DNA of 64,000 bases from Leptolyngbyaceae cyanobacterium (GCA_965263355.1 CBDHHL010000032.1:3424001-3488000), one strand, 5' to 3'; shown: positions 45,241 through 49,735, counted from the first letter of the stretch. Notes: a model not told the origin generated them from the letters alone. Translations and numbers: made by a program.

Positions 45241-48087
45241 ATGGCAATGACCAAGGATGAGCTGCTGGCGTTGATTGACCAGGCGGCGGCGGAAGGGTGG
45301 ACGGAGTTGGACCTGGCGGGGCAGGGGCTGAGCGAACTGCCAGAGGAGATTGGCAAGCTGACGCAGCTGGAGCGGTTGATATTGGGAAAGGGGAAAAAGG
45401 ATAAGGATGGGAAGCAGCAATGGAGATTCGAATTCATTGATGGTAAACATCGCTCAGTTGCTCTGACAATCGGTAATAAGCTGACAGCTTTGCCAGCTTG
45501 CTTGAAACAGCTATCTGAGCTGCGTCACTTAGATATTAGCGGTAATCCAATTAGTCTAATACCTGAGAATATTAGTGAGTTATCTCAACTAAAAACATTT
45601 ATTGCTCTTAAGAGTAAATTAACCCAAATTCCGGATTCCATCGCCCAGCTAGCCTCTCTACAACAGCTCTACCTTAACCAAATTACAGAGATTCCGGATT
45701 CCATCGCCCAGCTAGCCTCTCTACAACAGCTCGACCTCAGCTCTAACCAAATTACAGAGATTCCGGATTCCATCGCCCAGCTAGCCTCTCTACAACAGCT
45801 CGACCTCAGCTCTAACCAAATTACAGAGATTCCGGATTCCATCGCCCAGCTAGCCTCTCTACAACAGCTCGACCTCAGCTCTAACCAAATTACAGAGATT
45901 CCGGATTCCATCGCCCAGCTAGCCTCTCTACAACAGCTCGACCTCAGCTCTAACCAAATTACAGAGATTCCGGATTCCATCGCCCAGCTAGCCTCTCTAC
46001 AACAGCTCGACCTCAGCGATAACCAAATTACAGAGATTCCGGATTCCATCGCCCAGCTAGCCTCTCTACAACAGCTCGACCTCAGCTCTAACCAAATTAC
46101 AGAGATTCCGGATTCCATCGCCCAGCTAGCCTCTCTACAACAGCTCGACCTCCGCTCTAACCAAATTACAGAGATTCCGGATTCCATCGCCCAGCTAGCC
46201 TCTCTACAACAGCTCTACCTCAGCTCTAACCAAATTACAGAGATTCCGGATTCCATCGCCCAGCTAGCCTCTCTACAACAGCTCGACCTCAGCTCTAACC
46301 AAATTACAGAGATTCCGGATTCCATCGCCCAGCTAGCCTCTCTACAACAGCTCGACCTCAGCGATAACCAAATTACAGAGATTCCGGATTCCATCGCCCA
46401 GCTAGCCTCTCTACAACAGCTCTACCTCAGCTCTAACCAAATTACAGAGATTCCGGATTCCATCGCCCAGCTAGCCTCTCTACAACAGCTCTACCTCCGC
46501 TATAACCAAATTACAGAGATTCCGGATTCCATCGCCCAGCTAGCCTCTCTACAACAGCTCTACCTCAGCTCTAACCAAATTACAGAGATTCCGGATTCCA
46601 TCGCCCAGCTAGCCTCTCTACAACAGCTCGACCTCAGCGATAACCAAATTACAGAGATTCCGGATTCCATCGCCCAGCTAGCCTCTCTACAACAGCTCTA
46701 CCTCAGCTCTAACCAAATTACAGAGATTCCGGATTCCATCGCCCAGCTAGCCTCTCTACAACAGCTCGACCTCAGCTCTAACCAAATTACAGAGATTCCG
46801 GATTCCATCGCCCAGCTAGCCTCTCTACAACAGCTCTACCTCCGCTATAACCAAATTACAGAGATTCCGGATTCCATCGCCCAGCTAGCCTCTCTACAAC
46901 AGCTCTACCTCCGCTATAACCAAATTACAGAGATTCCGGATTCCATCGCCCAGCTAGCCTCTCTACAACAGCTCTACCTCAGCTATAACCAAATTACAGA
47001 GATTCCGGATTCCATCGCCCAGCTAGCCTCTCTACAACAGCTCTACCTCCGCTATAACCAAATTACAGAGATTCCGGATTCCATCGCCCAGCTAGCCTCT
47101 CTACAACAGCTCGACCTCCGCTCTAACCAAATTACAGAGATTCCGGATTCCATCGCCCAGCTAGCCTCTCTACAACAGCTCGACCTCCGCTCTAACCAAA
47201 TTACAGAGATTCCGGATTCCATCGCCCAGCTAGCCTCTCTACAACAGCTCGACCTCCGCTATAACCAAATTACAGAGATTCCAGGCAGTTTAGAAAGCTT
47301 AGAACAACTACAAAGACTCGATGTTCGTCATAATCCACTACCCATTGCACCAGAAATCCTGGGTCCTCCAGAAGACTATGAAGAACCAGGGCCAGTTTCC
47401 GGCATCTTCAACTACTGCCGCCAGCTCCGCAGCGGCGAAGTCCGCCCCCTTAATGAAGCCAAACTTATCCTGGTTGGCCAGGGCAGCGTCGGCAAAACAT
47501 CCCTGATCAACCGACTGATCGAAGATTCCTTTAACCCCAACGAAGCACAAACCGACGGTCTCAATGTGTCCAACTGGGCCATCAACGTCAACACCAAAGA
47601 CGTGCGCCTCAACGTCTGGGACTTTGGCGGTCAAGAAATCTATCATGCCACTCACCAATTCTTTCTGACTAAGCGCAGCCTTTATCTACTCGTCTGCAAC
47701 TGCCGCACCAGCGAAGAAGAAAACCGCCTCGACTACTGGCTCAAACTGATCAAAAGTTTCGGTGACGATGCCCCCGTCATTATCGTTGGCAACAAGCGTG
47801 ACGAACAACCCCTCGATATCAACCGAAAAGCTTTACGGAGCAAATACCCCAACATTAAAGACATTATTGAAACTTCCTGTCAAACTGGCGATGGCATCAA
47901 AGAACTGAACCAAGCAATTAATAAAGAGGTAGGACAGCTTAAAGAAGTGTACGATCTGCTTCCTCTTTCTTGGTTTGAAGTCAAAGAACACCTAGAAAAT
48001 TTAGACAAAGACTTTATCAAATACTCCAAATACGAAAGCATTTGTGACCAGCAAGGCATCGAAGAAGAAAAAGATCAAACCCAGTAA
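45241..48087 (+). CDS. Roco protein, N-terminal part: capping helix + LRR array + Roc GTPase + start of COR
   Basis: MTKDELLALIDQAAAEGWTELDL cap, 23-aa LRRs, GQGSVGKT P-loop, WDFGGQ, NKRD; stops at TAATAA 48085-48090. Confidence 0.95.
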   Translation: MAMTKDELLALIDQAAAEGWTELDLAGQGLSELPEEIGKLTQLERLILGKGKKDKDGKQQWRFEFIDGKHRSVALTIGNKLTALPACLKQLSELRHLDISGNPISLIPENISELSQLKTFIALKSKLTQIPDSIAQLASLQQLYLNQITEIPDSIAQLASLQQLDLSSNQITEIPDSIAQLASLQQLDLSSNQITEIPDSIAQLASLQQLDLSSNQITEIPDSIAQLASLQQLDLSSNQITEIPDSIAQLASLQQLDLSDNQITEIPDSIAQLASLQQLDLSSNQITEIPDSIAQLASLQQLDLRSNQITEIPDSIAQLASLQQLYLSSNQITEIPDSIAQLASLQQLDLSSNQITEIPDSIAQLASLQQLDLSDNQITEIPDSIAQLASLQQLYLSSNQITEIPDSIAQLASLQQLYLRYNQITEIPDSIAQLASLQQLYLSSNQITEIPDSIAQLASLQQLDLSDNQITEIPDSIAQLASLQQLYLSSNQITEIPDSIAQLASLQQLDLSSNQITEIPDSIAQLASLQQLYLRYNQITEIPDSIAQLASLQQLYLRYNQITEIPDSIAQLASLQQLYLSYNQITEIPDSIAQLASLQQLYLRYNQITEIPDSIAQLASLQQLDLRSNQITEIPDSIAQLASLQQLDLRSNQITEIPDSIAQLASLQQLDLRYNQITEIPGSLESLEQLQRLDVRHNPLPIAPEILGPPEDYEEPGPVSGIFNYCRQLRSGEVRPLNEAKLILVGQGSVGKTSLINRLIEDSFNPNEAQTDGLNVSNWAINVNTKDVRLNVWDFGGQEIYHATHQFFLTKRSLYLLVCNCRTSEEENRLDYWLKLIKSFGDDAPVIIVGNKRDEQPLDINRKALRSKYPNIKDIIETSCQTGDGIKELNQAINKEVGQLKEVYDLLPLSWFEVKEHLENLDKDFIKYSKYESICDQQGIEEEKDQTQ
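45628..47282 (+). repeat. 24 tandem LRR units of 69 bp (first unit 63 bp), identical except at 4 positions
   Basis: Unit ATTCCGGATTCCATCGCCCAGCTAGCCTCTCTACAACAGCTC[G/T]ACCTC[A/C]GC[TCT/TAT/GAT]AACCAAATTACAGAG; 63+23x69 bp matches the span. Confidence 0.97.
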
Positions 48088-48090
48088 TAA

Positions 48091-49026
48091 TTGGGCTGCT
48101 TCACAACCTGGGTCTGGTACTCAACTACAGCCGACCATCCTCTTTTAAAATACACTAACGTCCTAAATCCAGACTGGGTTACCACAGGCATTTATACGTT
48201 GCTGAGTGATGAGAACTTAAAGACAAAATCTAAAGGTCAACTAACCCTTGATGACCTTAGTCGGGTACTAAATCCCCAACGCTATCCAGTACATCGCCAT
48301 CATTACCTCATCGAACTGATGAAAGAATTCAAGCTATGCTTTGAACTGCCAGACTGCAAGCCTGCTCGATATCTTATTCCTGGCATCCTACCCAAAGAAG
48401 AACCAGAAGAGACTGACTTAGAAGGAGAAACTCTAAATTTCCAATATCATTACAGCGTATTGCCAGATAGTGTTATCTCGCGTTTCATCGTATACATGCA
48501 CGAAAAAATCCATAAGGAAACCTACTGGCGCAGCGGAGTAATGCTTGCTCACACTGAAGGCAATGAGGTTTACAATATTGCCCGCATCAAAGCCGACCCT
48601 GCCGACAATAAAATCTTTATCGCTGTTAGTGGCAAGGAATCTACCCGACGTACCTTTCTCGGAATGATCCGTGATGTATTCAACAAAAAAGTACACATCA
48701 ATTTGACTAAACCTACTGAGTGGGTTCCTGTCCCTGATCATCCCGATCATCCACCACTCGATTACCAAGAACTGCTTGGTCTAGAAGACATGAACGAACA
48801 AAACGTAGTCATCGGCAAACTCAAACTCAAACTAAACCTACGCCAACTCCTCGACGGCTACGAACCCATCGAAATCCGCAGACTCAAACAAAAAGGAGTA
48901 GACATAGATAGTACTGGCGACGGAATCAATATTTCCGTCACCGATGCCCGCACCAAAATCATCCAACAAGGCGATGGCGACAATGTTGCCGGAGACTTAA
49001 TAGAAGGGAATAAAACAATCACATAA
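48091..49026 (+). pseudogene. Roco protein C-terminal part (COR domain + G-D-repeat tail), separated from the N-terminal part by indels and stops
   Basis: VLNPDWVTTGIY, LMKEFKLCF, ISRFIV, YWRSGV are COR motifs. The linking motif LLHNLGLVLNY lies in a shifted frame at 48087-48131. Confidence 0.85.
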
Positions 49027-49069
49027 CCATGAAATTTAACGCTATCCTGAGAGTAATTCATGACTCCCA

Positions 49070-49639
49070 ATGACCTCATTAGTCCGCCTACAGCTACTCG
49101 ACGTCGTCGCCCTCAAAGCCGACCTACCAGACCATAATCTCACCGCAGGCCAGGTCGGCACCCTGGTCGAAGAATTAGCCCCTAACGTCTACGAAGTCGA
49201 ATTCAGCGACGACCATGGCCAAACCTACGCCATGCTACCCCTCCACACCGACCAAGTCCTTAAACTAAGCTACACACCAGGAGAACCAACCATGGGCAAC
49301 ACTATCAATCAATACGGCTCTGGCGACAACATCGCAGGCGACAAAGTCATGGGCGACAAAATCAATACCCAAATCAACAACAGCCAGGACTTAGCCCAGG
49401 CCGCTAAAGCCATCAAAGACCTCCTCACCCAACTCGAAACCGACTACGACCCCACCACCCCCGTCGGTCAAACCATGATGACCGCCAAACTCATCGAATC
49501 CGTCGATAACAACCCCACCCTCAAAGCCCGAGTCGTCAACGCCCTCAAAGAAGGCGGTAGCACGGCCCTTGAAGAAGCCATTGATCATCCGATAGTAAAA
49601 CCTGTGGTCGCTGCTCTCAAAGGCTTTATGGATGCATGA
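49070..49639 (+). CDS. DUF4926-like domain + GDN/GDK pseudo-repeat motif + C-terminal helical domain
   Basis: LLDVVAL...GQVGTLVE...YEVEFSD..G.TYAM (DUF4926-like), then NQYGSGDNIAGDKVMGDK, then LAQAAKAIKDLL...NPTLKARVVNALKEGG helices. Confidence 0.85.
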   Translation: MTSLVRLQLLDVVALKADLPDHNLTAGQVGTLVEELAPNVYEVEFSDDHGQTYAMLPLHTDQVLKLSYTPGEPTMGNTINQYGSGDNIAGDKVMGDKINTQINNSQDLAQAAKAIKDLLTQLETDYDPTTPVGQTMMTAKLIESVDNNPTLKARVVNALKEGGSTALEEAIDHPIVKPVVAALKGFMDA

Positions 49640-49735
49640 TGGATAAAACCACCCACCATTTAAAGAGCTCAAACAAAGCTTCCACACCCCCATAATATTC
49701 TAGAATAGGACTGACTCAAACTGTCTGAGCTTCCT

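Follow-up and report, generated by a model that had tools for sequence, protein, structure and literature searches.

What does it mean that a Roco GTPase and the product of the gene that follows it carry the same short motif, the one at its C-terminus and the other in its interior? The pair lies on the plus strand of a window of 64 kb from a Leptolyngbyaceae cyanobacterium (Table 1). An initial annotation of this DNA took the two as candidates for the receptor and effector of an immune system that signals through an amyloid-like motif. Known from STAND NTPases, the coupling by a short motif of an immune-type sensor to an effector encoded separately would thereby extend to Roco GTPases. Little is known of what these do in bacteria, and their human relative LRRK2 is a disease gene.

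The Roco gene, its neighbour and the motif they share

The assignment of the upstream gene to the Roco family was borne out by Pfam, which found leucine-rich repeats (LRR_8 in piece 1, E = 1.4e-240), a Roc GTPase (residues 741-854, about 47461-47802; E = 4.8e-33), COR-A and COR-B. In the assembly the gene is in two pieces and COR-A is divided between them, with profile positions 1-42 in piece 1 and positions 59-143 in piece 2 (E = 1.8e-21), where COR-B also lies (about 48427-48858; E = 5.2e-32). Two insertions put about 15 codons out of frame, and two TAA codons stand at 48085-48090. Both insertions are absent from all five contigs that span the site in four public runs (X1-X4), and the same contigs show 15 letter differences from the window in about 900 nt.

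Table 1. Coordinates of the features of the Roco locus, counted from the first letter of the window
Feature	Position	Strand	Source
Roco gene piece 1, 948 aa: leucine-rich repeats, Roc GTPase, COR-A start	45241..48087	+	ORF list and Pfam
LRR-encoding tandem array, 69-bp unit, 24.1 copies, 97% matches	45628..47282	+	Tandem Repeats Finder
Frame break in assembly: +2 near 48086, +1 near 48128-48131	48085..48131	+	blastn against intact relatives L006, L001 and L008
Roco gene piece 2, 311 aa: COR-A remainder, COR-B, variable linker, tail	48091..49026	+	Pfam, alignment of relatives
Roco tail motif, class 1, 4 codons ahead of the stop	48958..49014	+	Translation, BLASTP
Partner gene, 189 aa: DUF4926, motif, four-helix domain	49070..49639	+	Pfam
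Shine-Dalgarno-like purine run (49279-49283), 8 nt before in-frame ATG (49292-49294)	49279..49294	+	Sequence
Partner head motif, class 1	49304..49360	+	Translation, BLASTP
Predicted C-terminal four-helix 'H' module	49367..49636	+	AlphaFold2, helices pLDDT 80-91

The tail of the Roco and the motif of the partner, each in the reading frame of its own gene and where the initial annotation had placed them, align without gaps (11 of 19 positions identical, 14 of 19 positive; E = 3e-4 in a BLASTP of the two proteins). As had been claimed, the match is one of protein, four of the 11 identical residues using differing synonymous codons (three of these had been listed before), and a hydrophobic residue recurs at every fifth position. 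The motif is rich in glycine, aspartate and asparagine and also in charged residues, and the number of five-residue units varies in some relatives. A loose pattern for its core matches only two places in the six-frame translation of the window, namely tail and head, and its columns are nearly invariant in alignments of 16, 29 and 48 sequences. Over the 29 sequences column entropy was 1.30 bits in the tail core, 2.17 in the linker that precedes it and 1.13 in COR-B, and one tail residue is invariant while the COR-B identity of these sequences to the window drops to 25%. In both AlphaFold2 monomer models the motif has a pLDDT below 50 and the adjoining helices are confident. The Roco tail is a conserved tag of ~20 residues, predicted to be disordered when alone.

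The partner opens with a domain that the initial annotation lacked, DUF4926 (residues 9-63, about 49094-49258; Pfam E = 1.9e-23). Homologues of the partner number 402, and the fused DUF4926-motif-helix form is conserved in many cyanobacteria.

Recurrence and class matching of the pairing

On the Roco side the sample comprised 301 cyanobacterial genomes spread evenly over the class, which gave 181 COR-B matches; 60 Roco C-termini were taken from the 150 among the matches listed. Of these C-termini 23 were tail-only and 15 fused, and every tail-only Roco that could be assessed (22/22) had downstream, on the same strand, a gene bearing a motif of its own class. A survey of 80 loci from the partner side found 29 that were split with a tail, 26 that were fused, with motif and four-helix domain on the Roco itself, four with the whole module on both genes and two that were odd, although many loci are kin and such counts are not independent events. 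The remaining 19 lacked COR-B upstream, and in at least six the upstream DNA was shorter than 650 nt. A metagenome relative has the same arrangement of tail and downstream motif. That Roco tails and neighbouring genes carry the motif together, as had been proposed, thus stands from both sides, and such recurrence in other genomes is the best evidence that the match is not due to chance. Since Roco-module fusions are frequent, the window can be regarded as holding the split counterpart of an all-in-one protein.

Unsupervised clustering of 45 distinct tails gave four classes, of 30, 12, two and one members, each of which matches tail to partner. Tails scored 65-86 against downstream regions of their own class and 25-57 against those of other classes, the exception being class-1 tails with class-3 regions (70.0), and tail-tail similarity correlated with tail-partner score (Spearman 0.63). 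The motif is the sole element that the partners have in common; the rest may be the four-helix domain, a hydrophobic 'T' domain, CHAT or TIR. Among 23 pairs within class 1, own partners gave 11.26/19 identities versus 11.19/19 for non-own partners (permutation p = 0.38). The cognate partner had a median rank of 9 of 45. Covariation of tail and partner across genomes, which had been expected, was therefore found between classes but failed within class 1. In one Roco lineage (L004/L084) a gene downstream bears the module, yet the Roco tail is without the motif.

The helical module, an internal start and intervening toxin genes

A helical domain had been predicted to follow the motif in the partner, and the AlphaFold2 model has four helices there (Table 1). 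HeLo, MLKL and Bell folds had been named for comparison; fold searches matched none of them, the best Foldseek hit having E = 1 and the best VIA-align hits, to TetR C-terminal domains, Z = 5.8, in the background range for helical bundles, and the proposed part of death effector for the helical domain is unsupported. The module had no match in Pfam, NCBIfam or PADLOC, and no effector-associated domain (EAD) family of Pfam matched it even at E <= 10. A profile of the module nevertheless collects 1293 representative clusters at E <= 1e-3, and by the evidence of sequence the motif and helical domain together are an unnamed C-terminal module family. Its carriers include Roco, TIR, caspase-STAND, AbiTii and pentapeptide proteins, and 87 further representatives comprised 25 with Roc/COR, 16 pentapeptide-repeat proteins and others with caspase+nSTAND1, TIR+TRADD-N, AbiTii or a restriction-endonuclease domain. 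EAD7, where present on module-bearing Rocos, precedes the module. In filamentous cyanobacteria the family links Roco, TIR, CHAT, caspase-STAND, Abi and toxin-antitoxin parts, and the company of TIR, CHAT, caspase-STAND and Abi domains suits a role in conflict.

The motif was also considered as that of a pentapeptide-repeat protein and this was rejected, no Pentapeptide profile of Pfam matching over the five-residue repeats; the profile did not match on the partner or on module members. Pentapeptide domains occur as separate N-terminal parts in some other module-bearing proteins.

Just ahead of the motif lie a conserved ribosome-binding site and start codon that had escaped the initial annotation. 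In the window the internal ATG would open a 115-aa module of motif and helices. The arrangement of Shine-Dalgarno sequence and start was found at 44 of 64 loci versus 78 of 1271 random in-frame positions, and an anti-Shine-Dalgarno duplex of <= -5 kcal/mol in 15 of 28 dereplicated fused contexts versus 12.7% of internal ATG/GTG codons. The choice of glycine codon provides an unusually clean codon-level signal, GGA being used in 12/12 cases in the ribosome-binding window versus 8/112 a few codons later. Because site and start are conserved in this position, it is suggested that the tag and helical module are also made as a free protein of 115 residues.

Toxin genes stand between Roco and partner in some relatives, a feature that had likewise not been noted before. 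DUF6883 followed by DUF4926 is, in the available text of a 2026 preprint, a common toxin-immunity arrangement, and DUF6883 (an RNase toxin) lies between the pair, directly ahead of the DUF4926 gene, in 9/80 loci. BrnT was found there by tblastn in 6/80 loci and in further loci of the Roco sample (four Pfam-confirmed), the class 2 partner occupying the antitoxin position after it, and HicAB, ParDE and XisHI also occur there. In the window no toxin gene adjoins the pair, no DUF6883 gene directly precedes the DUF4926 gene, and the best tblastn match to DUF6883 in the whole 64 kb had E = 0.35.

Proposed coupling of sensor and partner, and known systems

The reading that we favour, at a probability of roughly 0.55, is of a conflict (defence-type) switch built around the Roco, present here in split form, in which the tags couple sensor and partner. 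It builds directly on the domains, the conserved pairing, the class matching of tails and partners, the finding of both split and fused arrangements and the codon evidence for the internal start; from these we infer a physical contact between the tags, its structure, its trigger and its output. The LRR-Roc-COR protein would be both sensor and switch, and the partner would hold its tag between a putative immunity-type domain, DUF4926, and the four-helix domain at its C-terminus. The tags may bind each other and fold on binding into a shared beta structure, with ordered, templated stacking as the leading candidate for their association. The contact would put the partner under control of the Roco's nucleotide state and gather four-helix domains together; in relatives with DUF6883 or BrnT between the genes it would also draw the antitoxin or immunity domain off its toxin. 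A sensor may thus govern a toxin-immunity pair by tag-mediated capture of the immunity protein. Several observations tell against the proposed switch: the motif is rich in charged residues, the L004/L084 lineage lacks it on the tail, no toxin gene stands beside the pair in the window, the Roco frame of the window is itself broken in the assembly, many of the loci counted are kin, and the bacterial Roco resolved by cryo-EM (CtRoco, below) monomerises on GTP binding. Further, in reported amyloid-signalling pairs a motif is usually closest to its own partner, whereas the class-1 pairs show no covariation specific to the partner.

A bolder form of the same idea, which we hold to be doubtful, makes Roco GTPases the mirror image of NLR amyloid signalling. 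A one-rung tag at the C-terminus of the sensor would template the ordered polymerisation of free module proteins, made partly from the conserved start within the sensor or antitoxin gene, and so would fire a C-terminal executioner and strip an RNase toxin of its immunity protein. The initial annotation had supposed that ligand-driven assembly of Roc-COR begins the process, but this fits poorly with what the available text reports of CtRoco from Chlorobium tepidum (a bacterial LRRK2-homologue structural model of the same LRR-Roc-COR architecture), which monomerises on GTP binding with a large swing of the LRR (PMC11052575). A nucleating platform like the NLR wheel is unexpected because the Roco seen by cryo-EM behaves in this way.

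It is unlikely, if somewhat less so than the others, that the pair is a relic of fission, in which a toxin-immunity or toxin-antitoxin cassette entered the motif of a once fused Roco-module gene and duplicated it, so that the tail is now kept for the Roco's own sake, for instance for stability or autoinhibition, and the proteins no longer communicate. Fused forms are indeed common (26/80 and 15/60), the junction is precisely where the cassettes lie (DUF6883-DUF4926, BrnT with the gene after it, HicAB, ParDE, XisHI), some tails (L056, L060) extend into what would be the start of the helical domain, and fine covariation of tail and partner is absent. However, the tail is nearly as conserved as COR-B while the preceding linker is not, its stop is retained in position across genera, four unrelated classes with the same matching would need the same accident several times, and CHAT or TIR partners have the motif alone in common with the Roco.

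Less probable again is that tail and head are recognition or processing sites for a third factor, such as a protease, chaperone or membrane site, and do not bind each other. The motif is predicted to be exposed and disordered, CHAT and caspase domains are present in the same networks, and proteolytic release of effectors has been proposed for related systems in the available text of Kaur et al. 2020 (PMC7159879), but no conserved third gene stands beside the pairs, four sequence classes would demand four recognisers and the internal start already opens a way to a free module without cleavage. A generic low-complexity linker, whose similarity would be compositional and meaningless, is very improbable: the motif is short, rich in glycine, aspartate and asparagine and variable in unit number in some relatives, but this explanation is already contradicted by the near-invariant columns, by the restriction of the pattern to two sites in the window and by the class-matched recurrence in 22/22 Roco-side cases.

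The tags of Roco and partner are a variation on two known themes, the motif pairs of NLRs and coupling by EADs, and no account of the arrangement turned up in searches of the literature, as the initial annotation had expected. Fungal NLR/effector pairs are known with fused all-in-one alternatives, a likeness to the fused forms of the Roco loci. The defining feature of NLR pairs, that receptor and adjacent gene product have a short motif in common, is present here. In the available texts on NWD2/HET-S, BASS-Bell (10.1101/2020.01.06.895854) and Bab/Agp with BASS11 in E. coli (10.1101/2024.11.07.622273), a G/N/Q-type motif of ~20 residues is likewise borne by a repeat-bearing NTPase sensor and the adjacent gene product; there as in Roco pairs motifs fall into several families, mainly in filamentous cyanobacteria, and partners have TIR, CHAT or small helical domains. 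The sensor differs, being a Roc GTPase with COR instead of a STAND ATPase (NACHT/NB-ARC), and the polarity is reversed as the initial annotation had stated: the motif is at the C-terminus of the sensor and ahead of the C-terminal domain of the partner, whereas NLR pairs have it at the receptor N-terminus and effector C-terminus. The Roco motif is also rich in charged residues and without fine partner-specific similarity, unlike NLR/BASS motifs. Amyloid is here a candidate property. In the available text of the BASS preprint (10.1101/2020.01.06.895854) neither Roco nor GTPase occurs.

According to the available parts of Kaur et al. 2020 (PMC7159879) and Kaur et al. 2021 (PMC8195603), bacterial Rocos have fast-evolving LRRs and, at the C-terminus, effector domains or EADs of at least 24 kinds. 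In the EAD coupling described there one small element recurs on the core NTPase and on an effector-bearing neighbour, as holds for the motif in Roco loci and for the whole module in 4/80 loci, but an EAD is a folded domain of 60-100 residues, whereas the element of a Roco pair can be only about 20 residues. The DUF6883 (BECR-Tox3 RNase)-DUF4926 pairs have in common with this locus the DUF4926 N-terminus of the partner, and relatives have DUF6883 directly upstream; compared with these and with BrnT/BrnA pairs, the protein in the immunity or antitoxin position here bears the motif and an output domain in addition and is placed under a Roco. Some Rocos carry EAD7 and then the four-helix module, which is unnamed in the available table rows on the LRR + AP-GTPase (Roc) + COR conflict systems in supplementary file 6 of the 2021 paper by Kaur et al. 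(PMC8195603). There an 818-aa protein of Nostoc NIES-4103 is given as LRR + AP-GTPase + COR only. Our module searches returned an 818-aa Miro-domain protein of Nostoc NIES-4103 (P0137) with the module at its C-terminus, and by length and organism this is probably the same protein.

The Roco gene of the window and its neighbour

The 948-aa and 311-aa ORFs that make up the Roco region lie in the same frame and jointly code for a single Roco protein. Pfam found LRR_8 (E = 1.4e-240), Roc (E = 4.8e-33) and COR-B (E = 5.2e-32), with COR-A divided across both pieces, and two TAA codons stand between the pieces. Comparison with intact relatives revealed 2 extra letters near 48086 and 1 more ~45 nt further on, which together put ~15 codons out of frame. 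Both insertions were absent from all five site-spanning contigs of four public runs; over ~900 nt (47900-48837) these contigs showed 15 letter differences and 3 gaps relative to the window, whereas contigs over 48808-49700 were identical to it. Assembly or strain variation may therefore account for the frame break, the gene being probably intact in the population. Strain variants may be mixed in the window right at the break, or it may have been mis-polished there. In the LRR-encoding array a 69-bp unit is repeated 24.1 times with 97% matches, a near-identity which suggests recent expansion or homogenisation. Arrays of this type are liable to assembly collapse.

Only 35-55 nt separate the Roco from the next gene, here termed the partner, in the window and its closest relatives. 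The initial annotation had reported a gapless match between the Roco C-terminus (the tail) and the partner (the head), and this was reproduced over 19 residues (11 identical, pairwise E = 3e-4), as were the synonymous differences, with four of the identical residues having different codons. The N-terminal part of the partner is DUF4926 (E = 1.9e-23, Pfam), and the helical domain claimed to follow the motif was modelled by AlphaFold2 as four helices with pLDDT of 80-91. The motif itself had pLDDT < 50 in both AlphaFold2 models; the one run on the complete 189-aa partner (48 sequences) stayed below 50 over residues 1-103 and is uninformative on motif structure. No further site of the motif core occurred in a six-frame translation of the 64-kb window. 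A reading of the five-residue period as a pentapeptide repeat or an RTX-like calcium-binding repeat found no profile support.

Features of the window, and of related loci (L-numbers, in their own coordinates)
Feature	Position	Strand	Basis or remark
ORF, 961 aa	28430-31318	-	no Pfam family at E <= 1e-5
Roco first piece, 948-aa ORF	45241-48087	+	ORF list
LRR-encoding array	45628-47282		69-bp unit
Roco second piece, 311-aa ORF	48091-49026	+	same frame as 948-aa ORF
Roco tail motif	48958-49014		
Partner ORF, 189 aa	49070-49639	+	DUF4926 domain, then motif, then helical region
Purine run of putative internal start	49279-49283	+	sequence
ATG of putative internal start	49292	+	sequence
Partner head motif	49304-49360		
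ORF, 395 aa	50355-51542	+	dioxygenase and GST parts
ORF, 513 aa	51812-53353	+	no Pfam family at E <= 1e-5
Upstream ORF	L073:3972-4580		no Pfam family, motif-ended
Upstream ORF	L075:7161-7964		no Pfam family, motif-ended
Downstream protein, 311 aa	L136:763-1695		fourth motif class

Recurrence of the pair in cyanobacteria

Searches with the partner gave 402 homologues at E <= 1e-3. The DUF4926-motif-helix form is kept in many cyanobacteria, and there are also standalone forms of 112-146 aa and homologues with alternative N-terminal domains, e.g. DUF2283. A scan of one genome per species yielded 169 relatives, from which 80 loci, all cyanobacterial, were kept and sorted by tblastn with COR-B and helical-domain queries together with Pfam. 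At 29 of these the arrangement was split as in the window, the Roco ending in the motif and the module (motif plus four-helix domain) residing in a separate downstream gene, while at 26 the module was fused to the Roco C-terminus and at four a fused module was accompanied by a downstream DUF4926-module gene. Two loci were odd, L004 having a Roco tail without the motif and L063 being broken, and at 19 COR-B was absent upstream, at least six of these having < 650 nt of upstream DNA. A Pfam scan of tail-bearing upstream ORFs found 18 of 20 to be Roco and the other two to be without a Pfam family. The upstream ORFs of L073 and L075, each followed by a standalone module gene, share a homologous C-terminal stretch of ~85 residues (49% identity, E = 2e-17), and it is possible that they are a second, non-Roco kind of motif-bearing sensor.

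A reciprocal search employed a COR-B-plus-tail profile against 301 evenly drawn cyanobacterial genomes and matched 98 of them, with 181 matches of which 150 were listed; 110 of these 301 genomes had a match to the module profile. Sixty Roco C-termini were taken, comprising the 54 listed matches with alignments reaching the tail columns and six others, three picked for a nearby module match and three from high in the list. Tail-only ends were found in 23, the four-helix module in 15, a second, hydrophobic module type 'T' in 10 and other ends (TIR-like, transmembrane, unknown) in 12. All 22 assessable tail-only Rocos had a same-strand downstream gene bearing a motif of the same class, the 23rd having only 191 nt downstream. 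The 22 Rocos with a T module or other ends were searched likewise, and none had a module downstream. Several of the 22 loci were shared with the partner-found set and ~15 were new. In five whole genomes a partner was present for 3/3 tail-only Rocos and for 0/4 Rocos ending in TIR or transmembrane segments, and a single-protein metagenome scan contributed one locus with an intact Roco tail and partner. The co-carriage that the initial annotation proposed to check held for the assessable tail-only Rocos; one Roco without the motif (L084, which is locus L004 again) still has a module gene downstream.

The T module, characterised by a long hydrophobic stretch, was present on the Rocos of L104, L106, L110, L111, L116, L127, L143, L148, L150 and L151, and also on DUF4926-plus-motif partners in L099, L107, L114, L145 and L146.

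Motif classes, partner architectures and the module family

Unsupervised clustering of 45 distinct tails gave four classes, with 30, 12, 2 and 1 members. When tails were compared with downstream regions by Smith-Waterman, scores were 65-86 if both came from one class and 25-57 if they did not, except for class-1 tails on class-3 partners (70.0), since the latter bear both motif types in tandem; such class-1 plus class-3 tandems are carried by the DUF4926 partners with a T module. Tail-tail similarity correlated with tail-partner score (Spearman 0.63). Matching of tail and partner held only at class level: covariation, a further check suggested at the outset, was not partner-specific among the 23 pairs of class 1 (11.26/19 identities with the own partner vs 11.19/19 with others, permutation p = 0.38), and the cognate partner had a median rank of 9 of 45. 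In an alignment of 29 COR-B-to-stop sequences, with identity to the window down to 25%, mean column entropy was 1.13 bits for COR-B, 2.17 bits for the linker before the tail and 1.30 bits for the tail core, in which one residue was invariant; the tail is under selection. The fourth class, which is unrelated in sequence to that of the window, was seen on a Roco tail and on a downstream 311-aa protein in L136 that has another kind of helical C-terminal region and matches no Pfam family.

Outside the motif the partner proteins differ. Their N-terminal part is DUF4926 or DUF2283 in some and an HTH-like region in others, or belongs to the gene that takes the antitoxin position behind BrnT; they end in the four-helix domain, in the T domain, or in CHAT (L123) or TIR (L133). 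Genes of toxin systems can lie between Roco and partner, among them DUF6883 at 9/80 loci (two frameshifted) and at further Roco-ascertained loci, BrnT (PF04365, E down to 7e-30), HicA/HicB, ParD/ParE and XisH/XisI. Intact systems in which the toxin is retained include L014 and L018 for DUF6883 and L026 for BrnT. A 2026 preprint, in its accessible part, describes DUF6883, a BECR-fold RNase, as commonly having DUF4926 downstream of it in a toxin-immunity arrangement; DUF6883 was not found anywhere in the 64 kb of the window. In L012, L063, L102 and L003 frameshifted DUF6883 or DUF4926 parts adjoin an intact module, and the motif and output domain seem less prone to decay than the toxin-immunity part.

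Among 1.84 billion representative clusters, a profile of the module matched 1293 at E <= 1e-3 and 691 at the stricter E <= 1e-10; the match nearly always ran to the very C-terminal end of the protein. When 87 further representatives of at least 190 aa were scanned with Pfam, 25 contained Roc/COR, 16 pentapeptide repeats (in one case together with a SLOG domain, in another with TRADD-N) and 38 no Pfam family. Single cases comprised caspase with nSTAND1, TIR with TRADD-N, AbiTii, a DpnII-type endonuclease, a protein kinase, an alpha/beta hydrolase, Clp_N and a porin-like region, and EAD7 precedes the module on some Rocos. It is clear that the module keeps conflict-type company. The family is in none of Pfam, NCBIfam or PADLOC: PADLOC gave no matches for 10 proteins and NCBIfam only GapS6a, at 15 bits against a cut-off of 90. 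The nearest clusters in a protein atlas were unnamed cyanobacterial hypotheticals, and an atlas lead to TCAD2 (0.88) found no support when 16 members were scanned with Pfam at E <= 10. The recommended fold search assigned the helical domain to no known fold, the best Foldseek hit against the PDB having E = 1 and the best VIA-align score among 48,161 chains (Z = 5.8, TetR C-terminal domains) lying within the helical-bundle background.

Met directly precedes the motif in 58 of 64 contexts, and Val, encoded by GTG, does so in three more. A Shine-Dalgarno-like purine run lies 4-18 nt upstream in 44/64, compared with 78/1271 random in-frame positions of the same ORFs, a caveat being that all figures on this start are inflated by relatedness of the contexts. 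Anti-SD pairing of <= -5 kcal/mol was found at 40/61, compared with 39/308 other internal ATG/GTG codons, and at 15/28 dereplicated fused contexts (Mann-Whitney p = 3e-4). Glycine before Asp/Glu is encoded by GGA in 12/12 cases within six codons before the Met, as against 8/112 in the motif just after and 3/31 further upstream (Fisher p = 8e-12), a contrast for which the protein sequence offers no easy explanation. We infer that the 115-residue module may also be made alone, from both Roco-fused and DUF4926-fused genes.

Proposed coupling of the Roco with its partner

The observation holds up as real, and it is both recurrent and structured. The favoured reading, with a probability of 0.55, is that the motif couples the Roco to its partner. 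The tail and head motif would touch and fold together, in a contact gated by the nucleotide state of the Roco, and the C-terminal output domains would cluster as a result; where a toxin is present it would lose its immunity or antitoxin partner. That the coupling takes an amyloid-templating form specifically seems unlikely. The initial annotation had envisaged ligand-driven assembly of Roc-COR, and this is weighed against by the only bacterial Roco with a GTP-state structure, which, according to the accessible part of the report, monomerises on activation (PMC11052575). Unmasking of a flexible tail is by that analogy more plausible than assembly of an NLR-like nucleating wheel.

Among systems already described the closest, from what is accessible of the sources, are the NLR-associated amyloid motif pairs (BASS, 10.1101/2020.01.06.895854; Bab/Agp, 10.1101/2024.11.07.622273) and the effector-associated-domain principle, which extends to LRR + AP-GTPase + COR proteins whose C-terminal effectors or EADs vary (PMC7159879; PMC8195603). 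The pairing seen here is a variation on such sensor-effector coupling, and its function is putative. Neither Roco nor GTPase occurs in the BASS preprint (10.1101/2020.01.06.895854). 'Amyloid signaling' and AP-GTPase were found together in one place in the accessible text of the literature searched, the amyloid term there being in a reference title only, and rows of the supplementary table of Kaur et al. (2021) give such Rocos as LRR + AP-GTPase + COR with neighbours unnamed. A 2025 motif-detection paper, in the part accessible, leaves GTPases unmentioned and reports a fungal motif with a glycine-aspartate-glutamine-asparagine core, which broadly resembles class 1 by appearance alone. The literature searched, which takes in few subscription journals, yielded no account of a Roco whose tail motif is matched in a neighbouring gene; within that scope the Roco as sensor, the reversed polarity of motif placement, the new motif classes, the large unnamed C-terminal module family, the immunity and antitoxin fusions and the putative internal start are all unreported.

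Elsewhere in the window are two large ORFs without a Pfam family, of 513 and 961 aa, the latter containing glycine/aspartate/asparagine-rich stretches touched by a loose motif pattern. Between the partner and the 513-aa ORF a single 395-aa ORF combines a truncated LigB-type dioxygenase (profile 37-165 of 269), a truncated GST N-domain and a GST C-domain, and looks like two genes joined through deletion.
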